Shown here in pieces: positions 23,571-46,533 of a DNA stretch of 64,000 nucleotides. The position numbers and the translations under genes are program-made. The notes beneath the pieces are model-generated. The model saw only the letters and a program-made list of their open reading frames with translations. It did not search any database and was not told where the DNA came from. Position 1 is the first letter of the stretch. Every line of letters starts with the position of its first letter. This DNA is from a virus. Lineage: Duplodnaviria; Caudoviricetes. The DNA is taken from positions 1 to 64,000 of IMG/VR virus record IMGVR_UViG_3300031867_004305; one strand, 5' to 3'.

Positions 23571-23612
23571 AAGAAAACCCCTCTTGCGTAAGCAAGAGGG
23601 GTTTCTTTATTT
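23568..23612. terminator. Bidirectional terminator between the convergent replication and morphogenesis arms
   Basis: AAACCCCTCTTGC-GTAA-GCAAGAGGGGTTT flanked by A- and T-rich tracts. Confidence 0.9.
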
Positions 23613-26600
23613 TACGTAGTTTTCCATTTTCTATAACGAACTGTACAATCATGCCAAGAGGTATTGCTATTAGTTTTAAACCATAATACACCATATTCAC
23701 CAGCACGAGACTTAGTTGGCTTTCGTGATCCTATATGTATCTGGAAACGGTTATTATAATTATTATTACCTCGAACAACTAAAAAAGGAGCATCTAAACA
23801 TATAAAACTATCTTTAATGTTGCTAGAACGAGAAACTTCTGGTATCCCACCAGTTTCATCTTCTCCTCCTTCTCCGCCTCCGCCATTTTCTTCTGCTATT
23901 TCAGGGATGCCTACATCTGCGGTTGGTGTAGAACCACTGTTATATGAACTGATAGTCACGCTACCATTGGTACTTAAAGTTATATTATTACTATTATAAA
24001 TGGAGCCTGCGACTCCGCCATTATGTAAAACAACTTGAGGACTATAATCATCTGCATCTTTCGCACTTACAATAACAGCAGCTTCTACTTGTCGAGAATC
24101 AATAGGATAACGCAGACTTATATAACCAGCTACACTCTGTATTTTACCACTAGAATTCAAAGTAATAGAACTAGGAGTTAAATGAATACCGCTAGATTTA
24201 CCTAATTCAAAATCATTAGAACCATTTTTTATATATTCATTTGATTCAATAGAGATTTCACCATTGGCATTTACTTGTATATTAGCAGTACGTGCTAAAA
24301 TTGTTTCTACAGATTCAGTGCCATGATTAGTTGAAGTAATATATCCTAACGCACTCATGCTAATATGTCCATTATCTTGTAAAAGTTGAGTTTTAGAGTT
24401 CAATTTATACAATGCTCCACCAGAAGTTGGATTGCTTGCGGTTCCACCATTACCAAATAAATCATATCCTAATTGTTCCAAACTATCACTGAAATCTTCT
24501 ATATTAGACTCATAATCTTCAAAAAAATCATCAAAATCTAATTCTATATCACTACCATCATCAGGATTTTTAGTGACGATATTCAGACCAGTAGCAGTAA
24601 TATTACCGGTAATATTCAAATCCCCAGTGTCCGCATCAGCATAGAATACTTCCTCATTATCATAATTTCTCAGCGTCAAACCATTCCAACTAATAGAAAC
24701 ACGCTCAACACGCTCTTCAAGAACCTTATAATCAGTACATTCATTATTCAGTATCATCGCACCTACATCCGCAATCAAAAATAATCCATCTTCATTTAAA
24801 GTAACATACTGTGCCGGGTCTACTTCAAAACCTACACCTTCTTCTGTACCATATGCGGCCCAGTCTTGTTTTACTACTTCATAATCTTCTCCCTCTCCGA
24901 ATAAATCAAAATCACTCTTCCAATTCTTATACGCAAATATACCATTATTATTCATCTGGAAACGTAAATCATCCCCAGCAAATAATCTCAAATTATTTGT
25001 ATCTAACTGTCCGGCCGCTAAAGCACTAGTATTCAATCCCGCTGGAGTAAGAATAGACTGCCACTTCCAGTTGCCATCTTCATCTTTTTCAGTAGCACTA
25101 AATAATCCGCCGCCACGCAAAGCAATTACGCCTTCGCTACTAGTAGCTAAAATACCATTAGACTGGTCTATGGTAAGTTTACCACTATTGAACGCATAAT
25201 TTACATTTGACTTATCTATTGATGCCTGGACCACAGTAGGCTTTAATTCACCTGTAGAAGTAAATGCCTGCGAAACAATACCAGAAACATAGGAACTCTT
25301 TTTCATTTGTTCAGTAGAAGCGATAATTTTGGTAAATAAATCTTCAAACTTAGTCTTATAGTTCTTACTTTCTATACTGTCTTCCCAAGGTCTGTCTAAA
25401 TCTAAAACAACTTTTGAAATATAGCCCTGAACATTTCTAAACTTCAATTCAGGGTCATTTATATGCACTATGCGGTTTAGCATCTTATACACTGTTTTTA
25501 TATAGTCTTTCTGAACCAAACCGACATTTAAGTTATAAGAAACTTGTGGTTGAGAACTTTCTTTTAGCACTTCCACCGCATCCAAATAAATCGCAGTATC
25601 GGCATTAGAAATAGTAAATAAAACATCTAATGTACCGCCAATATTTCCTGTTGCATGTTTCGCAGCTTCAGTACTATATTTTACGAAACTTTCCGGTTTG
25701 ATAGTAATGTAGTAGCTATCTGTAGTAGGAATAATGCCGCTATTTCCCAATCCTTCCTTATTTTCCTCAATCTTCGTAAGAATATAATAGTCCTCGTATA
25801 TCTTTAATTCATTACCATCTAAGTTAAGAGAAAACTGATCAGTACTAGTTTTCATAGATAATGACTTTACCATTACACGAGGATATACTATACGATAATT
25901 CTCATTTAATAGAATTGGTTGAACATCTCCAACTAATATATTTTCATTATAAACAATATTACTACCATCCACAGTATGAGTATATCGTGCAATTTTTGCC
26001 TCGTGATTCTGAGCCGAATTCACCATACAATCCAGTTCAGTTGAACTTAATTTTTCCATGCCTGTCAAAAGCAAACCAAACCTTACTTTACTACCGTTTT
26101 GAACAAAAACAGGAAAACATTCTGAATTGATAGTGAATTTACGCAGATTAGCAATGCTAGGGACTTTATTAGTTGTTTCAAGAGTTCCATGTACAAAATC
26201 AAAAAAAGCAAAACTAATATTATCGAGGTCATAAAAAGAACTATCAGTTTTTATAAAATTGTTCATTTTATCTGTCAAATCAACGAAATAATAATACTGT
26301 CGTTGCTGGTTCGATCCGACCTCATAATATAATTTTTGTTCATCATCAAATAAACCGCTATCCCAAATAAAATAATCCAAGCCAGTATTACCATCAACAA
26401 AAAAATCTTGCCCTCCGTTTGGAGCCCTATTTAGAGTAATAGCACTACTAGAAAAACTATCAGTATGTGTATCACCATAATCAGTATAATCATCCGGTTG
26501 CCAATAACCTTCGCGTAGTGCCGGCCCCATCATACGTTGAAAGTTTTCTATTTCTTCTTCTTTTTTAGCAATAAGCTTTTTTTGCTTATCTTCTAAGTTT

Positions 26601-28375
26601 TTGATTTCAAGCTTAATATCCTCAACCGCGGCTTTCGCTCGCACAAGCTCAGCTTCGTCTTTCACTACCCTTTGTTCCCAAACACGGCGAACATTTTCGT
26701 AATAAAGTCTTGGTTGATAGTCGTAAGTTAAATATACGCTATGTCCTCTATTTGGATCATTAGAAGGAAAATAAATTCCTGATATTTTTACTATATTATT
26801 AAATTCATCTCTTATAATCCCATTTGGATGAATAGCAATTAAATCGGTTAAATTATAGCCATCATCAGTATTAATATTATATTCTACATTGCGGTAAATT
26901 TTAATCGTACCATTTACTATACCTTTTTCAGTAAGATTAATATAAAATTTATCTTTACCTATTTCATCAGATGTTTCCTGATATAAAGTCGCTGGTTTAG
27001 GATTAGCATTAGTTACATGTATTACTCCATCTTTATCAACCAAACTATTATACAGCTGATTCGCTTTATCTCGTCTTTCTTTATCAAGCACTACCGCAGT
27101 TTCCGCAGTTGCCAACTTTGCTTCTTCTTCTGGTAGCATAACTGCGAGAGCAGTCAAACGTTCTCCAATAGGAATTAGTTCTTGATTCCATTCTCGCATT
27201 TTTCTTTCATAAGTAGAAACGTAGTTATATCTTTCATCATCAATTGCTCCAATAGAATACAAATAATCAAAATTTAGTACATAATCTTCTAAACTCTTAT
27301 TCGCACCCACATCCATAATAGTAATAAGCCCGCTTGCGGAAACATCACTATCTACCGGCCGCACATACATTTTAGTAACAATATCAGTGCCATCCATTTC
27401 ACGAGAAATAGAAGTTGTATTATATTTATAATTTATGTCAATAGGACCTTTGCCTTCTTCTATAAAGCTATTATAAAACACAATCTTGCGTGCGGTAATC
27501 CTATAATTTTCATCATGCTCATAAATATACTTACAATAAATACCAAAAGTTTCCGCTAAATCTTGCGTCAAATTATAAATATTACTTTCTTCTAAATCTA
27601 CTAAACGCTCTTTTTCTTTATATCCCTCAATATCACCAGGAATAAGACCGTCATTAGTCAATTCCCAAGAAACAACATATTCTTCTTCATATACTTTATC
27701 TCTTTCGCGTGCAACATTTATAACTTCTTGGCTATTTTTATCTCGTTTTGCCATTACAGTATAAGCACCCCAATCCATATCAACGACATAATACCAAATC
27801 GCAGGAGATACTGGGCTATTATTTGTAGGCCAAGGCTTCAAAAACTTATTTAGCCAATACTGCAATGTAGCATGTGGTTCATTTGGTACAAGTAGGTTTC
27901 CACCAACATCAGTAGTTTTATTAAACCACTTTAAATCCTCATCATAGAAATCATCGCTAACAAGAGAGATTTTATATCCTTGTTTACCTAATTCACTAAA
28001 CGCAAGCCCCTCACACTCTACATCACAATATAATTCATCTTTTTCATGACGTTCCGTAACCTTGGTAATAATATATTCAAAAACTTCTTCATCTTCCGTC
28101 CCTTTATTCAAAATCACCTTTATCTTTCGCATATTCACTAAAAGAACTCCATCTCTATAATCATACCAGATGGGGTTCTCTTTTTTTATGCCATCTACAT
28201 TCAAATACATAGGAATGGTAAAAGAAAACTCTTGGGTTCCATCTACATTTAGTTCTAAACTACCATCCTGTATTTGTCCTTTGAACTCTATATTGGCAGG
28301 CTTCAGGACGGTTATAAAATCGTCCTGAAGCGTCCAAACAGAGACTTCATAACTACGAACTTCTTGCTGTGTCAT
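23612..28375 (-). CDS. Large minor tail protein (Tal/tail-spike-like)
   Basis: 1587 aa; N-terminal tail-tip-like region, coiled coils and beta-rich C-terminus; follows the Dit-like gene. Confidence 0.7.
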   Translation of the reverse strand: MTQQEVRSYEVSVWTLQDDFITVLKPANIEFKGQIQDGSLELNVDGTQEFSFTIPMYLNVDGIKKENPIWYDYRDGVLLVNMRKIKVILNKGTEDEEVFEYIITKVTERHEKDELYCDVECEGLAFSELGKQGYKISLVSDDFYDEDLKWFNKTTDVGGNLLVPNEPHATLQYWLNKFLKPWPTNNSPVSPAIWYYVVDMDWGAYTVMAKRDKNSQEVINVARERDKVYEEEYVVSWELTNDGLIPGDIEGYKEKERLVDLEESNIYNLTQDLAETFGIYCKYIYEHDENYRITARKIVFYNSFIEEGKGPIDINYKYNTTSISREMDGTDIVTKMYVRPVDSDVSASGLITIMDVGANKSLEDYVLNFDYLYSIGAIDDERYNYVSTYERKMREWNQELIPIGERLTALAVMLPEEEAKLATAETAVVLDKERRDKANQLYNSLVDKDGVIHVTNANPKPATLYQETSDEIGKDKFYINLTEKGIVNGTIKIYRNVEYNINTDDGYNLTDLIAIHPNGIIRDEFNNIVKISGIYFPSNDPNRGHSVYLTYDYQPRLYYENVRRVWEQRVVKDEAELVRAKAAVEDIKLEIKNLEDKQKKLIAKKEEEIENFQRMMGPALREGYWQPDDYTDYGDTHTDSFSSSAITLNRAPNGGQDFFVDGNTGLDYFIWDSGLFDDEQKLYYEVGSNQQRQYYYFVDLTDKMNNFIKTDSSFYDLDNISFAFFDFVHGTLETTNKVPSIANLRKFTINSECFPVFVQNGSKVRFGLLLTGMEKLSSTELDCMVNSAQNHEAKIARYTHTVDGSNIVYNENILVGDVQPILLNENYRIVYPRVMVKSLSMKTSTDQFSLNLDGNELKIYEDYYILTKIEENKEGLGNSGIIPTTDSYYITIKPESFVKYSTEAAKHATGNIGGTLDVLFTISNADTAIYLDAVEVLKESSQPQVSYNLNVGLVQKDYIKTVYKMLNRIVHINDPELKFRNVQGYISKVVLDLDRPWEDSIESKNYKTKFEDLFTKIIASTEQMKKSSYVSGIVSQAFTSTGELKPTVVQASIDKSNVNYAFNSGKLTIDQSNGILATSSEGVIALRGGGLFSATEKDEDGNWKWQSILTPAGLNTSALAAGQLDTNNLRLFAGDDLRFQMNNNGIFAYKNWKSDFDLFGEGEDYEVVKQDWAAYGTEEGVGFEVDPAQYVTLNEDGLFLIADVGAMILNNECTDYKVLEERVERVSISWNGLTLRNYDNEEVFYADADTGDLNITGNITATGLNIVTKNPDDGSDIELDFDDFFEDYESNIEDFSDSLEQLGYDLFGNGGTASNPTSGGALYKLNSKTQLLQDNGHISMSALGYITSTNHGTESVETILARTANIQVNANGEISIESNEYIKNGSNDFELGKSSGIHLTPSSITLNSSGKIQSVAGYISLRYPIDSRQVEAAVIVSAKDADDYSPQVVLHNGGVAGSIYNSNNITLSTNGSVTISSYNSGSTPTADVGIPEIAEENGGGGEGGEDETGGIPEVSRSSNIKDSFICLDAPFLVVRGNNNYNNRFQIHIGSRKPTKSRAGEYGVLWFKTNSNTSWHDCTVRYRKWKTT

Positions 28376-28395: not shown

Positions 28396-30126
28396 TTAAT
28401 AATACATATATTTATAGGTAATAAAAATATTAGATAATCCATTTATAGTATTGGTATAAACACGATGACTATAATTTGGATTTTCTTCACTCCAAGGAAG
28501 AATATAACCTTCTTCATTTGGATAATTTCTATCTTCTATTTTTAGGTACTCAGAAATTACCATATCTCCTACGCTTTCTTCTACTTCGGTTATCGTTCCC
28601 CAGCTTTCAAAATTTGTGCTTGTACTTATTGATGTTCCACGCAAACGATATTGCATAGTCCCGGTTGCTTTACCAGTTTTGCAGTCAAAAGTAAAATCAC
28701 TAGTAAGCAAAGTTTCTCCGTCTTCATCGCAAAGAAAATACTTCATTTTATTACAAGCAGTAGCTTGATTGCTAGTAGTATAAGTGCTCGCAGCTCCAAA
28801 AGAGTCTACAACAGCGATAGCCCATTCGCGTGCGGCCTTATGATTTACACCATCACGTATAAACTTTCGCAAATCTACATTACTTATATTAGAATATGAC
28901 TTGAAAATCTTAATAGCCTGATTATAACCATTCCACGCACCAGGAAGTGTATAGCAGAATTTCTGTATCTTATCACTTTCTATAAATAATGTGTCATAAT
29001 TTTCATTATCATTATTTGCTTCAAAATCATTCGCGGGACTATTTATGTAATGAGTTCTTTCATTTATAATGGGTTGAATAGTAAATTTAATAGTGGGATA
29101 TGTAGGTGCAGTACCAGGATAATATAAATGTAGAACCTTATCATTTGGTAAATCTACTGTTTTACCAGAACGCATCAAAGGCCCAACAAATCCATAGGTT
29201 TCATCTTCATTTTGATTTTCAGCATTAGTTTCTGCGTATTCTTCATTAGTACCACTACCGCCGCTGCCATGGCCTGTTCCTTCTGCTTCATCGCTACCTA
29301 CACGTGTAAAACTGGTTTGTGCGAAAACATCACTACCTAAGAAGCTATCAACTTGAAACATTCCACTAACAGGAATGCCATCTTCTAAAATAACTTTTAT
29401 CGCATCTTTATCCTCTAATGGAGACGCATCCTCATTATTTGAGTTAGTCCAAATCTCAGCCCAAGTAGTTCCATATTGTTGTTTTTCAGCCAAAGTTTGT
29501 GGAACACGACCTAATATGTTTGTTTTAGAATACCAAAAAGGTTCGTCCATAACAAATGTAACACTCATCTCACCCTTATATAAAGAAGTGCTGGTTTCAT
29601 ATTCTTCGCCCGCTATCATGGTTGTTGTTTTTTCTTCAAAAGGTAAAAGATAGATAATAGGTGGAGTTGCTACACGAGCCATAACCGCACGATTAGGATG
29701 CTCAGCAAGCACTAATTCACGCATATTTCCAGCAGAAAACCAATGCTTGAAGTCATCTAATTGTTGCTGCGTCATACCATCGGTAGCCAAAGATAGTTCT
29801 AATTGATTTGTAGTGAAATGTGTACCCCAATAAAATTGTCCATCTACAACATCATAGGTAGTAGTTAAATCTTCAAATTCAGCAGAACCAGCACGTTGTA
29901 ATCTGCCATCGGGGAATGTAGCAATTAAACTCCAATCTTCTATCCATCGGCCACCGAAGGAAAAACTGATAAAGGAGCGGTCCATAAAGGACTCACGCTC
30001 CCAATCAGTTCTAGTCACATCAGTTGGGGTGATGTGCGTCAAGCTATAAGTTTGACTGCGGGGCTTAAAAGCCCCGCTAAATTGTTCGTTACCGTATAAT
30101 TCAGTAGGTGTTTTTGGTCTTGGCAT
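28396..30126 (-). CDS. Distal tail (Dit-like) protein
   Basis: Directly after the TMP; ISFSFGG, LVLAEHP, VTFVMDEPFWYS pattern. Confidence 0.65.
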   Translation of the reverse strand: MPRPKTPTELYGNEQFSGAFKPRSQTYSLTHITPTDVTRTDWERESFMDRSFISFSFGGRWIEDWSLIATFPDGRLQRAGSAEFEDLTTTYDVVDGQFYWGTHFTTNQLELSLATDGMTQQQLDDFKHWFSAGNMRELVLAEHPNRAVMARVATPPIIYLLPFEEKTTTMIAGEEYETSTSLYKGEMSVTFVMDEPFWYSKTNILGRVPQTLAEKQQYGTTWAEIWTNSNNEDASPLEDKDAIKVILEDGIPVSGMFQVDSFLGSDVFAQTSFTRVGSDEAEGTGHGSGGSGTNEEYAETNAENQNEDETYGFVGPLMRSGKTVDLPNDKVLHLYYPGTAPTYPTIKFTIQPIINERTHYINSPANDFEANNDNENYDTLFIESDKIQKFCYTLPGAWNGYNQAIKIFKSYSNISNVDLRKFIRDGVNHKAAREWAIAVVDSFGAASTYTTSNQATACNKMKYFLCDEDGETLLTSDFTFDCKTGKATGTMQYRLRGTSISTSTNFESWGTITEVEESVGDMVISEYLKIEDRNYPNEEGYILPWSEENPNYSHRVYTNTINGLSNIFITYKYMYY

Positions 30127-30132
30127 ACTCCT

Positions 30133-33100
30133 TTACCTCCTTGATATACCCAAATTGCCAGATTTCTTAGCAATCTTAAGGATTTCATCTGTAATGTTGC
30201 TACCAGCACGACGAGCATCATAATCATTAGCGATAACACCAGATTCAATGGTTAGATTTACATTGTCGATAGAAACTGCGTTAGAATTGTTAGTGATAGG
30301 TGAAGTTGCGGTGTTGGAAATAGCGTCTTGTAGTGCAGATACGATAGAGACTAGTGAAGTCTTAGAATTACCGAGTAAGTCATTGCGTACAAACTGAGTC
30401 TGTGCTGCGTTAAGGAATGCTTCGGGTTTCTTAGGAGTACCATCAACCCAAGCAGGTCCAGTATAGTCAGCGAGACCGCCTTGTTTGTAGAAGAATGCTG
30501 CTTGCTTACCATATTTTTGAGCTTGGATTTTTTTCAAAATGCCTTTTCGATCTTTTGAGTTAAACTTAGAAAGATTAATTTCATCTGATTCTACTAAATC
30601 TTGACCATTTACACTTTTTATTCTTATTTTAGTTACTTTTTTTACATTACCCTTTTTATCAAAAGTCGCTCTTGCTCCGTCTATTTGTAATTTTGATTTT
30701 GCTTTTAAATCTATTGGATTTTCCTTGCCGCCTACACCATGTCCTTTAGGAACTCCTTTTTTTAATGAATAAGTTATTGGCTCTTTATCCGCAAGACTAA
30801 TATTTGTTTTATCAGCAGAAGTATCAATTGCAGCAGTAGCATCAGCAGCATGAATGTCCTGAGTAGCATCTTCAAAATCATTCGCCAAGAAATACTTAGT
30901 TTTTCCATCTACTTTACCTTGTAAATATAAAATATCTTTTCCTTTCTTTTTAATAGTTTTAGTTTTTCCTGTTAAAGTAATAGGAACGTTTTTACCAAAA
31001 CTTTTACTAGTCTTAACTTTTGATTTTTTAATGGTATAAGAAGTCACACCTTTGGTTGTCATATAAATACCTTTACGACTGCCATCGCTTTGTTCTTCAC
31101 CAAAAGCGTTTTCTTCTTTTAGAATCTCTGTAGCACTAGCAGTTGCAGTTTTAGCGGCTTCTTCTTTATCCCCACCTATCCATTTACCATCTTCGTCATA
31201 ATTACCCATCATTTCTCTGACAAATTTTTCTTCTACTTCATCAGCATATTCTGGATAATTTTTATTATAGACGAATGAATTCTTTTGGTATTTGGCATTT
31301 TCAACAATTTTATTCCAATCATCTAACGCTGCTTGACCTTGAGCAGTCTTATACAAACCATTACGTTCATTTATTTTTTCTTGATTTATTCTATCATTTT
31401 CTGTTCTATTATATTTTTCACTCTCAGAAGCCATTGTATCATCATATGCTTTTTGAGCAGCTCGCTTTGCTTCTTCACGAGTACCACCATCCTCTAATGT
31501 GGTACGATAAGCACCTTCAGCCGCGGACATAGCATTATCGCGAGCGGCTTTTAAAGCAGTAGAATCACTAGCCAATTTAGAATATTTACTCTCATCCTGT
31601 GAAGTGTCGATACCGGTTTTATCTTCTTTCCATGCCTTATCTTCATCACGTTTCGCCGCGAAAGTATCAAACTTGTCCATGAATTCAGTCGCGGTCTTGT
31701 CAATATCAAGAGCAGACTTACTCTTCATTTCAGAGTCCCAAGCTAAAATCTTATCCCAAGCACTTTGAGCACTTTCATTAGCCATTATGTCTCGAACATC
31801 TTTCCATAACAAGCCATTCTCTTTTTGATATTCAAGCGTCTCGGTCATGATATCAATTTCTCTTTCTAAGGCTTCAATCTCTTTATCGCTTGCCTCTTGA
31901 ATAGCATCAATTTGACCTTGACGTTCATCAAAGTAAACGTCTCTTTGTTTACCAGAAATCTGTTCTTGTAGAGAACGAATTTGAGAAGCGGAACCGCCAG
32001 AACGCTGTAAGATAGCTAATTGACGTTGTAATTTAGTTAATTCATCCTTGCCCTGATTCTGTTCATATTGCTTACGTTCCTTATCTAAAGCTTCACTTAA
32101 ACCACTAATATAAGCATCAGACGCATCTTTCAAAGCATCTTTTAATTCAGTTTTTTCATCAATCAATGCTTGTTGACGTGATTCAATAGCCTTTAGTAAT
32201 TCTTGCTCTATATCTAACTCATTATCTCTCAACTCTTGAAGTATCTCATTCTGCTTAGTCTGATTTTCTTCAATGTTAGTAAGAGTATCATTATAGCTAT
32301 CATATAGATTATCTAATTCATCACGCCATCCATCTATGTTATTCCAGAAATTCTCCATCATTTTAACATAGATGTCATTTTTCTTATCTTTAGAATTATT
32401 CTTCTTAACTGCTAAAGTATTTTGATTAATAGATTTCGCAGCTTTAGTACCATCGTCGTTATATAATAAATCACTTAGATTAAATCCTACACTACGTAAA
32501 TACTTTAACTGTGCTCTTGCACTCTTAGCATTATTGATTGGTTGACCATTAACATCACGTTCATTCAACTTCTCTAAAATATCTAAGCCACGGCCGCTGC
32601 CTGGAGCACCAGAACCTACATACTGTTGTAATCCATTTTCATCGTAAGTGAAAATTTTACCATAATCAGAAGCTTCTAATTCCTTACGCTTGGCATCATA
32701 CCAACTCTTTTGTAATTCAACTAGTTCTTTCTGATTTCTTACTTCTTTACGTAGAATGGCAAGTTCCTTCTGATAGGTAGCATAAATTTTATCGCCATTT
32801 ACTACAAAATCAGATTGATACTTACTACGCAATGCTTGCTGATAAGTAATGTCTTTTTCTGCTTTCGCAATCTGACGAGTTAAATTATACCAGCGTTGGA
32901 TTTCTGCGGTTACAGCTCTATTTTCGCCATTATCATCGGCACCGCCACCGCCTCCACCGCCGCCACCTTTATTGTGTGCGAGGATAGAATTATTACCAAC
33001 ATAGTAGTTGTGATTATTAGATACTTCAAAGTTATAAACTCGAATTGCCATTTCTTCAATATCAATTTCAGAAATAGCGTGTAGAGTTCCATCAGCAAAT

Positions 33101-36100
33101 CGTACTAAATTACCAGTTGCCAAAGCAGAAGCAGGAATCCATTCATTACCAATTAAGAAACGGTGAATACCAGTAACTACAAGTTCTTCATCTTCAATGT
33201 GAAGAGTGTAAATATCTTCTTCAACATCGTGAATCATGGTTTGTAGAACTTCACTATATTCATTCTTTCTAGTTTCTTCATTGTAGGAGAGTACAATGTC
33301 ACCTACTTCAATATCTTCGATATTCTTAAAGCCATTACGTGTAGCAATTGGAGTACCAGCAACGAAACATCCGCCGCCTCCTCCGCCACCTTTTCCGCCT
33401 CTACCTGCAAGAGCACCAAGGTCTTTAGCAGAAGCAGTTGCTAAAGATTCCCACATAGCACGTAATTGCTTCAATGCAGATAATGCCGCGGATGCAGAAG
33501 CCATAGCTGGACCGGAAGTTCCGCCAGCAAGAGCAACAGCATTCTTTTCAGAAGTTACTGCATCTCCACGAGAAGATGAACCGTGTTTTAGAAGTTCGCG
33601 AGTCTGTAAGTGATTAAATACTATGGCGTCAGGAGCCAAATCTACGAATTCAGCACCATTCTGCCCTACAACATAATACTTACCACCAGAAACTACAAGT
33701 TCAGGTCCAAGTTCTCCAACAAGTGTTCTGCGGCCGCCAGCTAATGCGGGACCTGTGCCTTTGGAGAGGGCTACGTTGCCTTTAGCTTTAGGAGGAAATT
33801 CAAATTTTTCGATTCCTCCGCCAGTACCAGCACCAGTAGCTTTTACATTCACAGTAACATCCATTGAGAAAGACTTACTAGTAGGTATCCTATTCAACGC
33901 ATCGGCAATTCCCTTTACACGAGAAGCAACATCAGGAATCTGCTTCATAGCAGAAGCTAAATTACTTACCAAAGAACTACGACTTGGAATATCCTTTATA
34001 GCACTAGCTAGGCTCTGTACCGCGGCAGCCTTATTAGGTATCTTAGTCGCAGCGGTAGCTAAGTTCTTGACTTTTGTCGCGGCGACTGTCAAAGAAGCAC
34101 CCATACTAGCGGCAGCAGTTGATAATGCCTTAGCCGAACCTTGGGCTCCGCTAGTATCAACATTTACTGTGGTATTTTGAGTTGTATTGACTGTCTTATT
34201 TTCTGTGGTTTCGGTATCAGTATTAGTCGTACCAGATTGTTGTTGTAAAGTAACGGTAAAAGTCTGATTAGCAAATTGCTTTACAGTATCCCAAATACTT
34301 TCAACCTGAGACTTAATAACTTCCAGCATTCCAGACAAATCGGAGAAATTACTGAAAGAAGCACGGCTAATTTTTCCTACTCCCTGCTGTACTCCTAGCA
34401 AAGAAGAAGAGGTAGTAGAGAAGTCCATTCCTTGAAGTGCGGCTAAACCACTATTAGCAGTCAAATTAGTTGCCCCAACAGTAAGGTTGGAAATATTACC
34501 TTGGCCCTCAGAAATATCTTCTGTCAATGTAAGAGTACCGTCATACGTAGCATTGTTTGCACCAGTAATTTCTAGATTATCAATAGTGGAAGTAGCAGTG
34601 GGAAGATTAATATCAATTAAACCAGCGGCTGACAAAGTTTGAATGTTAGTTAAGTCAATACTATTAAGTTGCTGTCCAGCATCTAATACTTCTTGTATTT
34701 TAGCTTTATATTGTTCTAAAGTAGAAATACCATTTTCCGCACCAGAAACTTGGATTTGTACAGACAAAGAATCAAAATCAGTAACATTTTTTAGTTCAGT
34801 AGCCAGAATAGGATCGGCTTCAACTTCTGTAGTTGCACCATCTACTGAAGCAGTTTTTACTTGAATTTGAACAACTTTATTAGCTGCCCAAGTATTTACT
34901 GCGGCTTCTGCTCCATCCATATTAGCGGTAGTTGTTAAATCAACATTGGTGTCATTAGGCTCAACATCAACATTATATTTACCTACATTAGTCAAATTGC
35001 CATTTGCATCGAAACCAACGCCGTATTGTGCTAAAGTTGCTACCAAGTTAGCAGTACCATTTACAACAACAGTATTAGAGGAACCATTCTCTCCTACAAA
35101 TGTTATTTGATAAGAAGTCGCGTTTATTTTTGCATCATTAGAAGTTCCTGTTATAGAACCAATTTGACCAACATCAGGATTTTCTTCGCTTAATTTCTTG
35201 TTTGTAGCTTCTATTGTTAGTTGCTCTGAATTACCAGTTGTATTACCAACCGAGCCAACATCAACATCGCCACTATGCTCTAATTCTCCATTTTGTCCTT
35301 CATTTAAAGTAATGGTTAAAGTACCAGCGGTGCCAGTGCTATCTATTGCCCCACTAATTTTTATAGGATTACCTTCAGCTAAAGTAGCCTCTATACCAGC
35401 CGCAGTAAGTTCTAGAGAACCAGCGGTTCCTTTTGCATTTACTGCATCAGTCAAATCAATTACAGTACCATCTGATAATTTAGAAGAAGTTACTGAAGTA
35501 ATTTCTAATGTTTCAACAGTTGCTTTTGCTGTAGCTAGTGGAATTTCTGGAACATCAGCATTAAGATCTTGTTCCGCAGCTTTGGAAATATTTTCAGTAT
35601 TAAAATTAATTTTATTAGGCTTAATTGTAATTTCTGGAATTAGAATCTCTTGAGTTTCTCCTTCTGCTCCAGCAAGAGCAGTTGTCAAACCTTCTGCTAT
35701 TTTTGCACCTATTTGTGCTCCCGCTTCTCCTTCAAAAGCTTTTCCAATTCCGTCCGCAATTTTAGAAACTACTCCTTCTGGATCATAAGATTTTTCAATA
35801 TTTTCTAAAACTTTATCAGTAGTTAATTCTTCTTCAAATCCAGTGACTTCTATACCGCCTGGTATTTCTGCTGTATATTGGCCTTGTTCGTCCGGTCCTT
35901 TTTTTAAAGCTTCTGTAATTGCATTTTCAATTTCAGTTCGACGTGTTTCTTCATCTTTTTGTAAATATTCACCAATTTGTTTTTGAGTACCATTAACTGT
36001 ATTATCTGTCTGATCAGAGAACTCATATTCAACTTGTGCTGTAATACGCTTTTTGATTTTTACTTCTTCCGCTTCACGCTCAGTTTCTGATAATGCTCCT

Positions 36101-39100
36101 AATTTATCGGATTGATTTTGTAGTTCTTTTTGATAACGTTCTTCTATCAATCCATCCTTTAATTCCTTAATAGAACCATATTCTTTTCCATTAGGACCTA
36201 TATATTTTACATTACCATTTTCATCTGCTAGTACGTCTATAGTGGTTTGGCCAATAGTAAGAGTACCGTGTGATTTAATTTCAGTTTTTTTACGTTCTGT
36301 TTCATCAGTACTCATTTCAGTTTCTATATTCTCTGCTCCAGCCGCTTTTAGACTTGCTTCTGCAATAGCTTTTTTCGCAGCGGGAGAATCTGCCTTATAG
36401 GTCTGGCCATCAACTGTGATATCACCAGTTTCGGGATCAACTTCTATTAAGCCTCTAGCAACCAAAACAGATTTTACTTGAATTTCTGTAGCTTTACCTT
36501 GACTATAAGCAGTAAATGCTTCTTCTAATTCCCTTTGTAATTCTTCTTGGTTTCCTGTCAATTCTGGGTGCTCTTTCGCTACTAAAGCTAAAGCATCTGA
36601 AACTTCTTCAGATTCCCAATCTATAACATAATGAGTCTTGCCAGAAACAACCACAGAACGCTGTCCTGTTTTTATAACTGTACCATCAGGTAATGTTTGT
36701 TCTAATATATCCCAAACACTTTCGGTTACATTTTCTAAGTTATAATCACCATTCCGTGCGGCTTGATAGAAAGAATTAATTACTTTGGCATATTGTTCCT
36801 CTGTCATTCCCAAATCTTTCCAAGCATCAGCAGCATTTTCAAGTCCACTACGAGCGGCATAAATCATATCTTTTAATGACGTACCGTTTATACTAAGATG
36901 ATCTAAGGCTTTAGCTAAATCTTCATTATAATTTTCAGCTTTTGGATCATGAGTTACTTTATATATACTATCAGCCCATTCTGTATAACCCTTAGTGAAA
37001 TCACCTGCGGCATCTGTTGTACCATTAAAAATCTCACCTAAGTTTAATAATCCATCGCTGTCAACATCAATATCGCCCAGCTTCTCCATCGCAACGACGG
37101 TTTCCATCACCTGAATCGCAGCATCCAGCATAGCAATTTGACTCTCTGCCATAGCCTTGATTCCATCTTGGAAATTATCTTGCATGTTATTCGCACCGGT
37201 AACAAAATTGACGCCCAAACGACTCAAATCTACCTTAACGCCTTCACCATCTACATTAGTTAGAGCATTAGCACCTTGCTCTATTAGATAAGAAGCCATT
37301 TCAGCAGAAGAAGCAAACTTTTGACCATCTACTTCAAGCTGCCCGCTCATAGCGGCAAGATTAGACATTTCATTAACTATGTTGTAGTAATCAGTCAAAT
37401 CTATAGTACCCGCACTCGCAGCTTCATTCATAGTCTTATAAGCTTTACCTACAGAATCCCAATAATTAGCAGGGCCTTGTAGATAGTCGGGCAATTTGCC
37501 ATTCATAAAGTTATAAGAGTCGGGATCGCCTGCTTGTTTATTAGCGATTTGATTATATAAGTCTAGTTGATTCTCAAGTTCAGCATTTTGTTGACGTAAA
37601 CGCTGGGCACGAGCATCACCGGGGTCTTCCGCTTCTAATTTTCTTATCTCATACCAATTTTCACGGATTTGTTTTTGAGTCTCAGCAATGGTAGCCATAG
37701 TATCAGACATACTATCAAAGCCGCCACCCAAATCACCAGTAAGTGAATCATACAAATCATCAAAGACTAGTTGAGCTTTTAGACTATCAATCTTTTGTAG
37801 TTCTTGATATAACTCAATCGCGGACTGTTTGGTTAATTTCATTCCTTCTGCGGTTTTAGTAAACTCTAAGTTTACATTCATATCAAGACTATCAACCATT
37901 TGCTGTAAATTAAAAGCATCAGAATTACTTAGTTTTCCACTAATTCCTTTACTAATAGCGTCAACATAGGATTGTAATACGCTATCTAAAGTGTCAGCTA
38001 ACTGAGCCATATCAGACTGGAGTAGACCGCCATACTGTTGTGCGTAAGAAGCGATAGTAGAAAGAATGCCAGGTATATTAGCTTCTGAATCTAACTTTAG
38101 AATACCATCTTGTAAATGGCCACCCATACTATTGAGTATATCAATAAAATTATCAAAAGCGGGTACATCATAAGCGCCCTTGTTAACTATTTTACCCTCT
38201 AAAGCTGTTTCAAGTCGCTCACTCAACTGCGTCAAATTCAGCCAGTCTCCGCCTTTCGCATCTCCAAGAGCATTTACTTCTTCAAGAATGTTATTTTCTG
38301 CCTTACGATTCATTTCAATCAAAGAATCATTATAAGTTTTAAAAGCAGAAACATATTCTTCACTATTCGCATCCCAACCCATTAAATCAGCAAAACGAGA
38401 GAAGTCAGCAATCCGCATCTTATTGCCACCCATTAGGTCAATAATACCGGATGTTTCTAAATCATTTATCATCGTTTCAGTTAACTGAATACCAGCATCA
38501 GCTAGTATCTCACCAAAACGAGTGAAAGTCATTCCAGTAGCATCGCCTAATGCGTCTATAGCGGCTTGTTCTCCGTCACGATTTTCTAAGGCTAAAGCTG
38601 CAACCTTATTCAAATCGGCTAGAGTTGCTTCACCGGTGGCTTCTAGTCTAGTCAATAAGTTGTTATAAGCCTCATATAAATTAGCAGCTGTCTCTACAAC
38701 GTACTGTCCACTTTCGCCCAATTCATTTACTTTACCGCCGCTAAGAGCTATTATTTCAGCCGTAGCAGAATCAATGATTTCACCAGGTTTAGCTATAACA
38801 GTATCAATAGCATTAACAAAATTAGCAACCTCATTACGATATGCAGCCTCTATATCACTGTCAGAAAGAGTTGTTCCTTGTGCTTTGGCAATTTCTTCCG
38901 CAGCTTTAACTGCATTTTCTCCACCATCTTTCAAAGCGGAAATTATATTATCAGCATTTAAACCCTCAGTTTCTCCCAAAGCAAATAATACAGCATTATA
39001 ATCTTCAATAGCTTTTTGTAATTCATCTATCTTTAATGCACGAGCAGGGTCACCGTTTGCCATACCTAAGAAGCCAGTTATATCAATAGCTTCGGCAAAT

Positions 39101-42100
39101 TGCCGCTTAGTATCATTAATTAGTTGCTCCGCAGCCCAGCGCTCATCACCAGACAAAGAGTTTAATTGCTGACTTAACGATTGAACCGACGCAATTAACC
39201 CAGTAGTGCTATAAACAAATCCATGTACCGTCTCATCATATTCAAATAATGCTGATATATCAAAACTAGTGCCTAATTGCTCATTAACACTGGATACACG
39301 TTTACGCATATCTTCTATACTAGTAGTGCCTTTGCCTTGTAGAGAACTTAAACCAGTTAAAGAAGAAATAATACCATCAATTTCATTAGCTATCATTTGT
39401 TTTAATTCTTCAGTAACTTTTATTTTGCCAGTTTGAATTAATCTATCCAATTCAGCAAGATTCATTTTATAAGTGCCGTCATCTTCTTTTTTAATTAGAT
39501 TACTTATAAAATCATAAGAAGTTCCAAAAATCTCTGCTAATGTAGCTACATTTTCTTCAGTTAACTTATCACGTTTACTTACTATATCAACAAACCTAGC
39601 AGTATTATCAATTTTAGCATTAGCAGATTCTAGTTTTCCACGTAATTCAAGATACTGTTTACTAGTTTTATCCAAAGCACTATTATTTAATATGTTTAAC
39701 ATATTTTCATAACTACTTGATAATTCACCAGTAACCGTATTTACATCGAAATCTTCTAAAGATACTCCATCAATAGAACGAGCTAATTTCTGTCCAGCTT
39801 CATAACTAAAATTATCAAAAGAATCAATAACATCTTTTAGAGCATCATAAGCATTATTTTCATAATCTTTTGCTCGTGCTTGGGCAATTAAAGCGTCTAT
39901 TTCTGTAGCATTTTTGCCAGTCAAATTAGCATAATTTCGTACAAAATCTTCATATGAATCTTGCCAGTCTTTAATTGCGGCAGACATTTCATTAAATGTT
40001 GAAGATTCAATACCAGTATTAGCATAATCTGTAATATTAAAATTATCTATGCCCTTGGATAATAGATCAGATAGGAGAGTGTCAACTCCACCGCGAGCTT
40101 TTTCAACCGCGACTTTTAGTTCGGGTTGATTCGCGGCGTCATATCTTTCTGTGCCAGATAGATATTTGTTAAAGGCTTCTGTGTCGAAAGTTTCTAAAGC
40201 TGGTATGCCAGTAATTCGTGCTTGTTTTCTAGATTTTTGATTAGGCTTTTTCATGAATTGGCCATTTAACAAAGAAGAATAATCACCTTTATTCCAATTT
40301 TCTTGCTGAAATATCATAGCTTGGATTTGTTCTACGGCCATACCATAATCTTCTAGACCATTAAATATATTTTCAAATAATAATTCAATAGTTTTTTGGC
40401 CAGCTTCTGTTAATTGATTCGCTTCATTTATAAGCACTTGACCATTAGAATCTAAATATTTTTTGGTGGTTTCATCATAATTAAATCCATTCGCACTAAG
40501 GAACTCTCTCATTTCTTCAGATAATACTTCCTCAACGTCAGGAATTGAAACTTGATTATTAGAATCTAATAATCCTGCACTTTGTGCCTTCTTTAGATTT
40601 TCTTGTACTTTTTCCGCAGCTTCATTTATATGTTCTCCGTATTTTTGCTGTATTTCGTTAAATGCCTGTTCAGAAAGAATTAATTTATCACCGTTAGATA
40701 TAATATCTGAGCCAATATCTAAATCTACTCCCCAACCTTTAGCTTTATTTACTAACTCATTAGCTTCTTTCATCGTCATTCCAGAAGTAGCCTTAGAAAG
40801 TATTTTAGTATCATCTTCAGCTTTTTCTAATAGTGAGTCAAGTTCTGATTGAATAGAAAGAGCAACATTATCTACTATTCTTTGCTTACGAGCTTCTAGC
40901 TGTTTTACTGTAGATTTAATAACGCTTTGATCTGCTCCTGAAGATTCTATTGATGAAATAGCTTCTTCAATACCTTCTGTAGTATTTAAATTGGATTGAT
41001 TTAAAATGTTTATTATAGAATTACGATCAAAAGCACTTATATTATCTTGATATAAAGCATTTATTAAATTAGAAGTATTATTACTTAGCTCCCCTGCGGC
41101 CTGGACAAAACCTTGTTTTTCTAATTCATCAATTTGCTTTACCTGTGCTGAAATAAAATCTAAAGCATTAGAAGATAAATCCCTTTTTTCCAATGAAGTT
41201 TTTAATTTTCCTAATGCTGTAGGTAAAGTTTCATCAATTTTTTCACCAGACGTTGTATCATAAATTGGCTCACTATAAGTATTAAAGATGTTATTTAATC
41301 TTTCTATAGAATCTTCTGTAGAAGTATATAAATTATCTATTGCTTCATTTATTGCTTTATTTGATTCGTCCAAATTTAATTCTTTTTTAACATCGTTTGC
41401 TGTAAAAGCGGAAGTATCATTTCCTATTTTTTCTAATATATCTTTTTGTTCTTTATTTAAATCATTATAGCCTTTATAATACTCATTTAAAGCATTTTTA
41501 AAATCATCTGTTTCTTTAAATTGTTCCCAAGTTTTATTATTATTTTTATCCTGTCCCCAAATAGAAGATAATTGTCGAGTAAGTAATAAAGCCCCTTGAG
41601 TATTTTCATTTAAAAACTTCCAATTTTCTTCTAAAGATTTATCAAGTAATAAATAAGAAGAAACAACTGAATTACGTAGCCCAGCATTTTCACCTGATAA
41701 ATTAGCTAATTCAACATTCAATTTATTTAATTGAGAGACATCAAAATTCTTATTAATTAATTCTTTAGTTTCTTCAGATAACGAATTATATGCTTCTAAA
41801 AATTCATTTAATTTTTGTTGTCCAAATTCAGAATTAAAATCATAATTATCTAAATGATTAATGAAATCTTTTACTATCGCTTGTGAAGTTTCAAGGCTTT
41901 GTTCAGTAGAAAAATCAGATGATAAAAGTAAATTGGCAAGTTCATTTAGCCCTTGTAATGAATCAGGAATCTTTTTTCCTGCTTCATTATAAGCTTGAAT
42001 TGACTTGTTAATTTCAGTAGAAAAAGAAGATATGTCTTTTATTTGGTCTAAATCTATTTTAGCCCCAGATCTTTCTACTATATCACGTAAATAATCCGCG

Positions 42101-45100
42101 GATGTATCTTGATTTAAAATACCTTCTAAATATTGTCCTACTTCATCAAAATTTAAAAATCCGCCCATAGCATTTCTTAACATGCCATACGCTCGATCTG
42201 CTAGACGTGTACTATTAGCAGTATCATCAAAAGAAAAACTATTATCAGTAATTTCGCCAGAACGATTATTAAGATTTTTAATTTCATTTGCAGTTGTCAA
42301 CATTTTTTGTTGATTTGCTTTTTGTTCACCTACAGCAGCATCATATGTAGCTTGTAGCGTTTTTTGACGTGCAGCCGCTAACATTTCCTCAGCATTTGCA
42401 GTTTCTATAATTATATTACCGCTACTATCAAAACCGCTAATTAATTGGGGAAAAGAATCTGCTAAATCATCAACTGCTTTTTGATATTCTTCAGCTGCTT
42501 CAGCACTTTCATACCTTTTTTCTTTTAATTCATTTACTTTATCTATACCAGTTTGTAAAGTTTTTTCATCTGCTTTAACTTGCTTTGCTGTATTAGAAAG
42601 TTCTTCCGCTTCTTTATTCAAACGCTCTAATTTTTCTTGAGGCGTCTCAATTGCCGTGGCAATTCCATTTATAGCTGTAATAGCTGCCATAGCTACTGTT
42701 ACCCAAGGGAATGGGCCTTTAGTTTCCATAGCTTTCATTACAGAAGATATACCTTTTATAGCTCCGCTTACAAACATTAAAGATCCTGCGAATATTCTAC
42801 TAGAATCTGTAGATTTATCCATAACATTAGCTACAATATTAAGAGCAGAACTAAAATCTAATAAACTATCATAAATCTTTTGGTTTTTAATTTGAGTTAA
42901 AGAACCAGCAAACTCTTTATTTGCTATAGCTAATTCTTTAATTTTTTCTAATGCTTTTTCTGGTCCCTCATTAGCTAATTCTCTTAAAGATTTAGCTTCC
43001 TCATCTGTTATCGCTTTTAAATCTTGTAATCTAGTAATAGCATTTGATATTACTTGAGGATTTATAATTTCACCATTAGAATCTCTCTTAAAAACAATGG
43101 TTTTTGATATATCAGAAAGATCATTTAAACGCTGTTTTGTAACTTCAATTTCTCTATTTATTTCAGAAAAAGAAGAAGAAGTACTTAGACCTTGCCGTAA
43201 TCCTTCATTAAAATCGTTACCAGCTTTTTGCCCTTTTCCTCTTAAATCCAAACTCTCTACATGTCCATCTAAATGACTCTTAAACTGCGTAGCAATAGCA
43301 GATAAACCATTTAATGCTACTGTTTTAATCAAAGAAATAGCATCAGCAATAACAGTCGCAGCACCAATAGGAATCTTTCCAAATAACTTCGGTAAACCAT
43401 TTAATGTATTAATAAAATTAGTAGTACCATCTAAGAGTCCTTTCCATAAATCTTCAGCGCCCAAAGTAGTATAAAACTGCTGATACGCAACTTGTACCTG
43501 ATTCAACTTAGACTCAATAGAATCCAAAGCCTTCAAAGCTTGTAAAGTACCAACATCTTCACTATCATTCGCAACTTCTAGGTTTTCACGCAATAAATCA
43601 CCGTTACTTACCAAAGCTAAGAAACGAGACTGCTGTCTATTACCAGCAAACTGTGTAGCAACATATCTCTGCTGTACTGAACTTAATTGATCCCATACGT
43701 CAGATAATTCAAGAATAACATCAGTAAAGTCTCTAAACTGTCCTTCAGTATCCTTCATAGAAATACCAACAGACTGTAATGCAGAATCTACTTTATTGAA
43801 AGCCATAACCTCGCCTTCAGCATCTACTAAAGTCAGAGGATCTTTGGTTAATTCACCATAACGGCTCGCAATTGACTTCATAGCAGAACCAATATTATTC
43901 GCAGATTCACGAGTAACAGCTACCATAGTAGCGATCATCGCAGAAGTTTCTTCAAATGTAGAACCTACAGATTCCATAGAAGAAGCTGTCCTTGTCATAG
44001 CTTCTGCCAATTCTTGCTGACTTACAGCTGTATTCGCGGCTAAATTAGAATAAACATCTACAACCGTAGAAGCCTCAGACATTTCCATTTTAAAACCACG
44101 AATGGCGGTTGTCATATAGTCAGTAGTTGTAGCATAATCTAATCCAGAAATCTTAGATAACTTTAATGTTTCATTTGTTAAATTTAAAACATCATTAGTT
44201 TCCAAACCTTGCTGATAGTAAATACGAGAAACTTCATAAGCACCTTTAATGGTAACACCATAATTCTGTGCCATAGCACTATAGGCATCTACTTGCTTCC
44301 ATAAATCAGCAGTAGTCATATCAGTAACTATAGCAATACCATTCATTACACTATCAAGTTCTTTGATATGATTCATCGCATCTCGTATAGCGGTTTTAGT
44401 TAAATTTAAAATCTGATTAAATCCCATAAAATTAGTAATAGCCATTTTTATGGAATTAAATGTTTGCTGTTGCTGCTGTAAACGCATAAAAGCAGCACTA
44501 GCTTGATCTAGTTGATTAGCAAATCCTTGTAATTGTCCTTGCATAGCACTTATGCTACCAACAAAAGCACTATTTGCACTTACATTCTGAACTGCTTCTC
44601 CACGTAATATTGCCAATGCTTGTGCAACACGCTCAATTTCTGCGTTATAATCTGACATTCCTTGACTTAAAGGAGTGCCATTAGCTTTCGCAGCATTCAT
44701 TTTATTATATAGATCTTCTACAGCTTTTTGTAAATTTTCATATTCCGCTACTTTTTGTTTAGCACCAGTTAAGTCTGAGCTATTCTTTTTAAAAGATTCA
44801 TCTAAATTTTTAAAAATATCATTAAAATTGCCCTTTTTAAACGCTTCATTAATTTTACCAAAACTTAGTTTTTGTAATGTAGCTATATCAGCATCGCTTA
44901 CTTCAAATTGTTCTTTTAATATTCGTAAAAATTCTTGTTTTCCACCTGACTTAAATCCAGTACCAGCTTTATTAAGCATTTCTCCCCAATCTTGTTGAGT
45001 AATGCCATTACTTAATAAATTTTTAGCTTTTCCAGTTGCTGTAGCTTGCTCAGTAACTGTATTATTTAATTCATCAAATTTAGCTTTAGCGTTTATTAAG

Positions 45101-45636: not shown

Positions 45637-45677
45637 AATAAAAAAGAGCCACTCCCTATACACTTAGGAAGTGGCTC
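45637..45677 (-). terminator. Intrinsic terminator between the second tube gene and the TMP gene
   Basis: GAGCCACTTCCTA...TAGGGAGTGGCTC followed by a T tract on the minus strand. Confidence 0.7.
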
Positions 45678-46533
45678 ATATATCAGCATCAATGTCTTGA
45701 TTGAGACGCGTTATTTTCACTATTAAATTTTTGCTATCATCCGTTTGCTCGGGCAAACCAATGATATTAAAAACAGACGTAGTTGGATCAGCCCTTTCTC
45801 CCAAGCGTAAGTTAATATCACTCACGACTCTTACTTTTGGCATATAAATTAAATTTGTATAATTTAAGCCTTCTTTTTCATCCTTAGAGTAAAACTTACC
45901 CTCAAGAGTGAATAATCCATTAAAGCGTTCTTTTTGAATCAAATAAATTAACGCTTCATCCTTATACTCATAATAATAATCAATTATGTATTGTTTTGTC
46001 GGGTCTGCCGCCGTTTTTAATTCTTTATCCTCATAAACCTCAATGAAAGGAAAACCGCTTTTGGTTTTTAACTTACCATAAACCTTCTTTTGCGCGACAT
46101 CGCGCTCATATTCATAAATAAAAACTTTTTTCTTTGTATATGGAGTTTGTTGAATATAAAATCCATTTTCTGAATCTAAATCAAATGGCCCTTCTCGTTT
46201 CTGTACTAATATAGATTCATTCGGTAGCACCTCTGCCATAGAGGAACTTAAAAGAATAGCCATACTAATAGAAGACATAACGCCTTCGGAAAGGGAGAAC
46301 TGGACTTCTGAACTATCCTCCCAAATAACACGAGGCATATTGGACCAACCGCCTCGCGCCATGACCGGAGTACGTCGTTCAGTTAACATTGAAATATTTA
46401 CATTTTCAAAATAAAGTACCGGTTCTCCTTCTTCCAAGCGTCGGGAACCAAATGTCATAGGAACTTTTGCTTTTAGCACAACTTCATATAATTCTTTTAC
46501 ACCAAAATATTGGTCAATCATTTGATTCACCAC
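45676..46533 (-). CDS. Tail-tube-like protein, paralog of the major tail protein
   Basis: FGVKEL..VLYFENV..ARGGWSN..IWED aligns by eye with YGIKEV..VLFLDTL..ATGGWGN..TWDY of 46580-47551. Confidence 0.65.
   Translation of the reverse strand: MVNQMIDQYFGVKELYEVVLKAKVPMTFGSRRLEEGEPVLYFENVNISMLTERRTPVMARGGWSNMPRVIWEDSSEVQFSLSEGVMSSISMAILLSSSMAEVLPNESILVQKREGPFDLDSENGFYIQQTPYTKKKVFIYEYERDVAQKKVYGKLKTKSGFPFIEVYEDKELKTAADPTKQYIIDYYYEYKDEALIYLIQKERFNGLFTLEGKFYSKDEKEGLNYTNLIYMPKVRVVSDINLRLGERADPTTSVFNIIGLPEQTDDSKNLIVKITRLNQDIDADI

Follow-up and report, generated by a model that had tools for sequence, protein, structure and literature searches.

Type-A bacterial intein-like (BIL) domains form a thioester at their N-terminus and cyclise an Asn at their C-terminus, with cleavage products predominating (PMC4031507, PMC7664689). 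Such domains, including the C. thermocellum BIL 2LWY, can also ligate their flanks without a nucleophile at the residue following the domain (+1), the freed amine attacking the thioester (PMC4031507), and in BIL2 of Tetrahymena the thioester is resolved by a lysine epsilon-amine to give an isopeptide (PMC8616854). BIL and Hint domains are already known from bacterial secreted proteins and polymorphic toxins, and canonical inteins have been listed in actinobacteriophage tape measure proteins (bioRxiv 10.1101/2025.01.02.630785). Here, we describe a type-A BIL domain, also classified as PT-HINT and called the Hint below, in a poly-Gly hinge of a giant tape measure protein (TMP). The TMP gene lies in a 64,000-nt stretch of DNA (hereafter, the window) that makes up positions 1 to 64,000 of the IMG/VR virus record IMGVR_UViG_3300031867_004305, a contig of 181,042 bp, rated complete by CheckV, of an uncultured phage from the rumen or gut. 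Maturation of TMPs by proteolysis is known from lambda, where gpH is converted to gpH*, and from T5 pb2; a short C-terminal segment is removed or trimmed, with no known use of a Hint. The window's TMP resembles these proteins in that its C-terminal part would be processed during or after tail assembly, whereas it contains a processing module of its own, which close relatives may have or lack. Our literature search found no paper on BIL or Hint domains in TMP hinges, on a cassette present in 0–3 copies, or on a strictly conserved Lys following the domain.

Identity of the Hint domain

The TMP is encoded by a minus-strand open reading frame at 30133..45609 (5158 amino acids, aa), which ends in a TAA stop and contains no in-frame TAG. 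All features described below lie on the minus strand. The protein was identified as a TMP by its PhageMin_Tail core (PF10145, aa 444–656, 43642..44280; E 2.1e-30), by its PHROG matches and by the Dit-like gene downstream; 15 of the 16 PHROG families matched are annotated as tail length tape measure protein, and those 15 match the N-terminal third. At about 1.5 Å per residue, a TMP of 5158 residues would mean a tail of roughly 770 nm.

Between two glycine runs of this protein, Gly7 at residues 4074–4080 and Gly9 at residues 4215–4223 (the latter after a Lys), lies a domain of 133 aa (aa 4081–4213; 32971..33369), with exactly 945 residues following Asn4213. The original prediction, made from the sequence alone, had placed a Hint between poly-Gly linkers of a giant TMP at exactly these residues. 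Locally, AGRGGKGGGGGGG leads into CFVAGT...VTGIHRF...ILAHN, after which the chain continues with KGGGGGGGGGADD. The hinge comprises G-R-G-G-K-G7 on the N-side (aa 4069–4080; 33370..33405) and the Gly9 run on the C-side (32941..32967). Three motifs are intact: Cys1 (C4081; 33367..33369), the predicted nucleophile of the N-S acyl shift; the block B T-G-I-H (T4146 and H4149; 33163..33174); and the terminal His-Asn (H4212 and N4213; 32971..32976), the predicted site of Asn cyclisation. The +1 residue is Lys (K4214; 32968..32970), and Gly4080 is the residue preceding the domain (−1), at whose carbonyl the predicted thioester would form.

The profile search proposed along with the original prediction returned two families above their cut-offs, Pfam PT-HINT (PF07591; E 7.2e-20, 72.1 bits against a cut-off of 27.7, model positions 2–136 of 137) and NCBIfam intein_Cterm (TIGR01443). 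The match to the Hint is far beyond chance. By sequence, the closest solved structure was 2LWY (E 5.6e-16, residues 1–133 against 4–138). An AF2 model built from an alignment of 31 Hint sequences had a pLDDT of 88.4, an all-beta core and disordered Gly flanks. Foldseek ranked 2LWY as the top match to this model (E 1.7e-12, TM 0.80/0.90, rmsd 1.3) and the Tetrahymena BUBL BIL2 (6Y75/6TMM) as the second (TM about 0.75–0.79), followed by mini-inteins and Hedgehog.

With Cys1, the block-B TxxH and the His-Asn in place, Lys rather than the Cys/Ser/Thr of canonical class-1 inteins at +1, and no endonuclease, the domain is a type-A BIL, in agreement with the BIL/PT-HINT kind named in the original prediction. 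It is only 133 aa long and lacks an insert between blocks B and F, which leaves no room for a homing endonuclease; spread by homing is therefore not expected.

The C. thermocellum BIL and PF07591 are alike to the TMP domain over the full length of the sequence and in fold, and they share with it Cys1, the block-B TxxH, a block F with Asn where Asp would stand, and the His-Asn, as well as the lack of a +1 nucleophile and of an endonuclease. Bacterial BILs, however, reside in secreted proteins and polymorphic toxins, whereas the present Hint sits in the poly-Gly hinge of a phage tape measure, in 0–3 tandem copies and followed by Lys-Gly. The +1 residue varied among 28 copies from bacterial and archaeal genomes (25–42% identity; Ala 7, Ile 3, Ser 3, Cys 3, Lys 3, others), and a Lys at this position is thus not a general property of PT-HINT domains. 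BIL2 of Tetrahymena thermophila BUBL shares the fold and a Gly before Cys1, and its thioester is resolved by a lysine amine (PMC8616854); it differs in being eukaryotic, in having ubiquitin-like flanking domains, in an attacking Lys that is not at +1, and in sequence (E ~1e-3). Canonical class-1 mini-inteins, including those in actinobacteriophage TMPs, have the HINT fold, Cys1, TxxH, His-Asn, intact empty-site alleles and a TMP as host in common with it. Unlike them, the window's Hint has Lys at +1, occupies a low-complexity linker instead of a conserved functional motif, forms tandem arrays among its relatives, and carries no homing endonuclease.

An optional cassette at a fixed site

A search with TMP residues 3850–4450 yielded 120 giant TMPs of about 2900–7300 aa (query included), in each of which the flanks and the Hint were located by blastp. 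Both flanks were found in 104. In 98 of these, the flanks are joined by a short linker without a Hint, so the comparison suggested with the original prediction, a look for homologues without the domain at this Gly linker, gave a positive answer. The other six (P0001, which is the window's TMP, P0002, P0003, P0004, P0006, and P0050) contain one or two Hints inside the hinge. The N-side flank (aa ~3901–4066, GELGPELVV...AMASASAALSALKQLRAMWESL...DLGALAG; 33412..33909) is common to about 100 giant TMPs according to blastp. A run of at least four Gly was present in 86 of the 98 Hint-less linkers (median of the longest run, nine), and a typical Hint-less hinge reads DLGSQAGRGGGGGGGGGGGDD. The flanks of 16 further giant TMPs were too diverged for blastp; these proteins possess two or three tandem Hints amid Gly/Lys/Arg-rich sequence. 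Across the giant TMPs, the copy number is 0–3.

Explaining the presence of the Hint on a tree of the flanks takes four changes, at least three of which are forced by well-supported branches. P0002 and P0003, sisters on this tree with a full-length identity of only ~64–67%, are exactly one Hint apart: the hinge of P0002 reads SPKGKKGKS, Hint, KGGKGGGGGGGGDSEG, and that of P0003 reads SPKGKGGKGGGGGGGDSEG. In P0022, a relative of the two without a Hint, a similar K/G/P-rich linker has been retained at this site, GKGKKPKKGGGG. On the Hint tree, the window copy is nearest to copy 2 of P0004 (73% identity) and to P0006, neither of which is close to it on the flank tree. Given this presence and absence at the same site, the changes on the flank tree and the mismatch between the two trees, the Hint is an optional cassette that comes and goes, and is exchanged, at one fixed site that tolerates insertions. 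Empty-site alleles exist, but the Hint inserts into low-complexity Gly sequence and brings the +1 Lys with it.

Conservation was assessed over 44 Hint copies from 22 proteins (pairwise identity 43–100%, median 58%). Cys1, Thr66, His69, His132, and Asn133 are invariant in all 44, and so is the block-F stretch VYNFEV..HNYY. Lys occupies +1 in every copy and Gly occupies +2 in 40; at −1, Gly (31 copies) and Ser (12) prevail, with a single Lys. Spacers between copies in tandem arrays shrink to as little as K-G. Tandem copies group according to their place in the array (first copies with first copies, and so forth), and identity within one protein is 54–71%, which indicates that the arrays are old and that every copy has been kept intact. 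This pattern would be expected if failed self-processing damages the TMP. The invariance of the catalytic residues in such diverged copies points to selection on Hint activity. It also speaks against an inert passenger, that is, a Hint that stays folded and unprocessed in the mature TMP, a reading we hold to be very improbable; from general tail architecture, three chains with one to three folded 15-kDa domains each would be unlikely to fit the lumen of the tail tube.

The Lys at +1 extends to viral contigs beyond the giant TMPs. In IMG/VR, where single-sequence queries gave few loci and an alignment-based scan did better, it was found in 9 of 9 close copies, and 67 distant copies had Lys (52) or Arg (4) in most cases. 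The distant set is dominated by one abundant marine family; counted by eye, it holds about nine Lys/Arg lineages and about eight others. Distant Lys-flanked Hints were seen at the N-terminus of a gpJ-like tip protein (Phage-tail_3 and FNIII-A_GpJ) and in DUF4815 proteins (among L036:2426-5362, L065:2-4726, and L070:2-3526), and L075:2-3211 has a Hint with Ile at +1 in a Gly-rich stretch of an unrelated TMP. In L023:2051-3403, L030, L072, L079, L082, L083, and L089, two or three tandem Hints form the extreme C-terminus and are followed only by K-stop or K-x-P-stop. The only possible action of these C-terminal arrays is self-cleavage at the N-terminal side, yet the +1 Lys is retained in them. 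Hint domains seem to recur as accessories in the tail proteins of phages.

In an all-against-all search, 16,112 representative clusters passed E ≤ 1e-3 and 47 passed E ≤ 1e-30, with arrays of up to seven copies. The +1 residues of 150 representative matches were called automatically, and these crude calls serve for qualitative use only. Four to seven tandem Hints occur in some proteins of the 1.84-billion-protein library, for example, P0211 (1285 aa), P0221, and P0193; in P0211, the residues following the Hint copies read KKKKKRR, with the domain ends called roughly.

At the DNA level, an 11-nt direct repeat, AAAGGTGGCGG, brackets the unit K-G7-Hint. Its left copy starts at the K4073 codon (33383..33393) and its right copy, 423 nt away, at the K4214 codon (32960..32970); these are the only two copies in the window. 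Recombination or slippage between the Lys/Gly-coding repeats would delete the cassette precisely and leave GRGG-K-G9-ADD, a predicted product that resembles the Hint-less hinge of P0024, GRGGKGGGGGGGGGGKDD, and unequal exchange between the repeats would duplicate the cassette. Gain, loss and duplication are probably the work of recombination within this repetitive hinge. An 11-mer common to two Gly-codon runs is in itself unremarkable. A recent foreign origin of the Hint was rejected, as its GC content, GC3 (54th percentile of the TMP gene) and Leu codon use are all typical of the gene, and the insertion is thus not recent. A prophage or bacterial source of the close Hint clade was rejected for now, the best match among the genomes of 185,579 species being ~40% identical.

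Predicted processing at the hinge

With confidence about evenly balanced, we favour the reading that the Hint and its Lys are an active, optional type-A BIL cassette in a conserved, disordered poly-Gly hinge, which excises itself and leaves the two halves of the TMP mostly re-ligated. The hinge would separate the long, variable ruler part of the TMP from the conserved, tip-proximal part of 945 aa. After translation, the Hint would fold on its own, Cys4081 would turn the Gly4080–Cys4081 peptide bond into a thioester, and cyclisation of Asn4213 would break the Asn4213–Lys4214 bond. The freed amine of Lys4214 would then attack the thioester, which a Gly at −1 should leave unhindered, and rejoining of the halves would be the most likely outcome. 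The attack could come from the alpha-amine, the route proposed for type-A BILs, or possibly from the epsilon-amine. The product would be a continuous ruler like the one that Hint-less relatives make directly, together with some cleaved by-product.

Both the activity of the domain and the re-ligation of the halves are predictions. Ligation is plausible given the invariant +1 Lys, the Gly or Ser at −1 in 43 of 44 copies, the unbroken chains of Hint-less relatives, and the outcome of a search for TMPs naturally divided into two genes at the hinge, which found none. That search returned 51 shorter homologues, which were rejected as real hinge splits: their starts are scattered, and most come from short contigs or are probably splits caused by stop-codon recoding. 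From what is generally known of siphovirus tails, the tube lumen would not be expected to accommodate a folded Hint, the ruler would lose its connection to the tip anchor if every chain were cut before the tube grows, and a ruler in two pieces would not measure tail length. If splicing is indeed the outcome, the Hints would be a natural, compact ligating family that needs no Cys/Ser/Thr and works in a Gly/Lys context, which would be of interest for protein ligation tools.

Several points weigh against re-ligation. Published test constructs of type-A BILs gave mostly cleavage products (PMC4031507, PMC7664689). The distant Lys-flanked Hints that end other phage proteins with K-stop or K-x-P-stop would have no use for ligation, so the Lys may serve the domain's own catalysis instead. 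TMPs that are cut have precedents in lambda gpH and T5 pb2, both trimmed proteolytically, and the arguments from lumen fit and from the broken ruler come from general knowledge of siphovirus tails.

A device that only cleaves, with the Hint cutting one or both of its ends and the halves staying apart, is possible and in our judgement less probable than re-ligation. It would produce a ruler of ~4080 aa and a tip-proximal piece of 945 aa, which may be a separate tail-tip protein or an ejected protein that engages the cell wall. In lactococcal phages, Tal proteins are known to process themselves at glycine-rich sites, and the PG_binding_1 or SH3_3 domains in the C-terminal piece of relatives fit cell-wall contact. 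Cleavage without ligation would also agree with the lack of Cys/Ser/Thr at +1, with the predominantly cleaved products of BIL domains (PMC7664689, PMC4031507), and with the related Hints at protein C-termini that can be cleavage modules only. It accords poorly with the 98 of 104 same-flank homologues that have no Hint and an unbroken chain, which argues that cleavage at this site is no general requirement, and a copy number of 0–3 is unlike the needs of a dedicated cleavage site. No natural two-gene split at the hinge was found, the short homologues starting at scattered positions, and cutting every chain before tube assembly would be expected to detach the ruler from the tip anchor.

The same evidence bears on the original prediction that the TMP carries its own protease, separating a ~4080-aa ruler from a 945-aa piece. 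The part concerning an intact domain of a self-processing type stood; the evidence does not establish the split itself, which is probably not a full account, in view of the relatives' unbroken chains, the copy number, the missing natural split and the ability of type-A BILs to ligate (PMC4031507). Non-canonical ligation had been named as an alternative alongside the original prediction. Should cleavage alone prove true, it would show that a ruler of tail length can be divided at a defined hinge, which bears on the measurement of very long tails and on the delivery of the tip-proximal TMP part to the cell wall.

The invariant Lys also raises conjugation, in which the Gly thioester would be attacked by a lysine epsilon-amine, either that of Lys+1 (an isopeptide splice) or that of another chain or tail protein (a cross-link), as in BUBL BIL2. 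We consider such a device improbable. Lys at +1 in 44 of 44 copies, with Gly or Ser at −1 in 43, would suit it, as would the recurrence of +1 Lys/Arg in many unrelated Hints of phage virion proteins and its rarity in bacterial relatives (3 of 28); BIL2 is, in addition, the second-best structural match and forms an isopeptide with a Lys epsilon-amine (PMC8616854). Sequence similarity to BIL2 is weak (E ~1e-3), though, and the nucleophilic Lys of BUBL lies in a folded downstream domain and not at +1. The Lys of the TMP Hints could equally be catalytic, structural or a mere supplier of the alpha-amine, and cross-linked tails find no supporting evidence of any kind. On a bolder reading, which we hold to be improbable, the invariant Lys after every copy would itself be the ligating nucleophile, the poly-Gly C-terminus being handed to a lysine amine to give an isopeptide-spliced or cross-linked TMP; this would be a phage counterpart of BUBL, widespread in virion proteins.

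C-terminal piece, genetic codes and neighbouring genes

In the C-terminal piece of 945 aa (30136..32970), a conserved coiled-coil region (ERWYNL) is followed by a variable, K-rich beta region, and the tip-anchor end is again conserved. It opens with a conserved EIQRWYNL segment and coiled-coil sequence and closes with a segment of ~110 aa (GGL.DYTGPAW.DG..K.PEA...NDYD.R.A...SRR; 30136..30477) kept in L010 and L011. Neither Pfam nor PHROGs matched this piece or the 1000 aa upstream of the Hint. The TMPs of relatives have PG_binding_1 or SH3_3 about 540 aa beyond the hinge; in the window's TMP, a Lys-rich, beta-strand-rich region (aa 4845–5035; 30505–31077) stands in their place. This region is probably a cell-wall-binding module of unrecognised type. 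AF2 run on it without an alignment gave an unusable model (pLDDT 46.9), and the ESM Atlas offered weak leads only (score 0.82) to SH3_5, SH3_3, and GW cell-wall-binding domains. The C-terminal piece fits a tip-proximal part that meets the cell wall, which does not imply its release as a separate protein. A partial homologue of the piece, P0122 (1454 aa, with PG_binding_1), is labelled by NCBI as coming from a Methanobrevibacter metagenome-assembled genome; the label probably arose through misbinning of a rumen phage contig but could be a hint to the host.

Relatives that carry the Hint differ in their genetic codes. In L003/L013, L015, L010, and L012, TAG aligns with Gln (for example, GS*AGRGG corresponds to GSQAGRGG), and in L011 in-frame TAGs were counted only. 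In L014, L016, L017, and L018, TGA aligns with the invariant Trp of the Hint. With TAG read as Gln in some relatives, TGA as Trp in others, and no in-frame TAG in the window's TMP, one Hint clade spans phages with three genetic codes. This recurrence, together with the Lys/Arg-flanked arrays in other virion proteins, points to a general feature of phage tail biology, apparently undescribed in the literature searched.

When the Hint with 100-aa flanks was compared by tblastn with 50,697 GenBank phage records, the flanks were unmatched, so the TMP family is absent from the cultured-phage databases; Hints and inteins gave distant matches only, namely, the RNR inteins of Campylobacter phages and hypothetical proteins of Ruminococcus phages.

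In the window, portal and head genes stand before the TMP gene and tail genes after it. Directly downstream is the gene for a Dit-like distal tail protein (28396..30126; phrog_33), followed by one for a Tal-like tail protein of 1587 aa (23612..28375) with a weak Prophage_tail match. Just upstream of the TMP gene are two adjoining paralogous genes, at 45676–46533 and 46580–47551, both of which match phrog_2729, a family of virion structural proteins (E 6e-19 and 4e-52, respectively). The pair may encode the tail tube protein and a diverged copy of it, or a chaperone.

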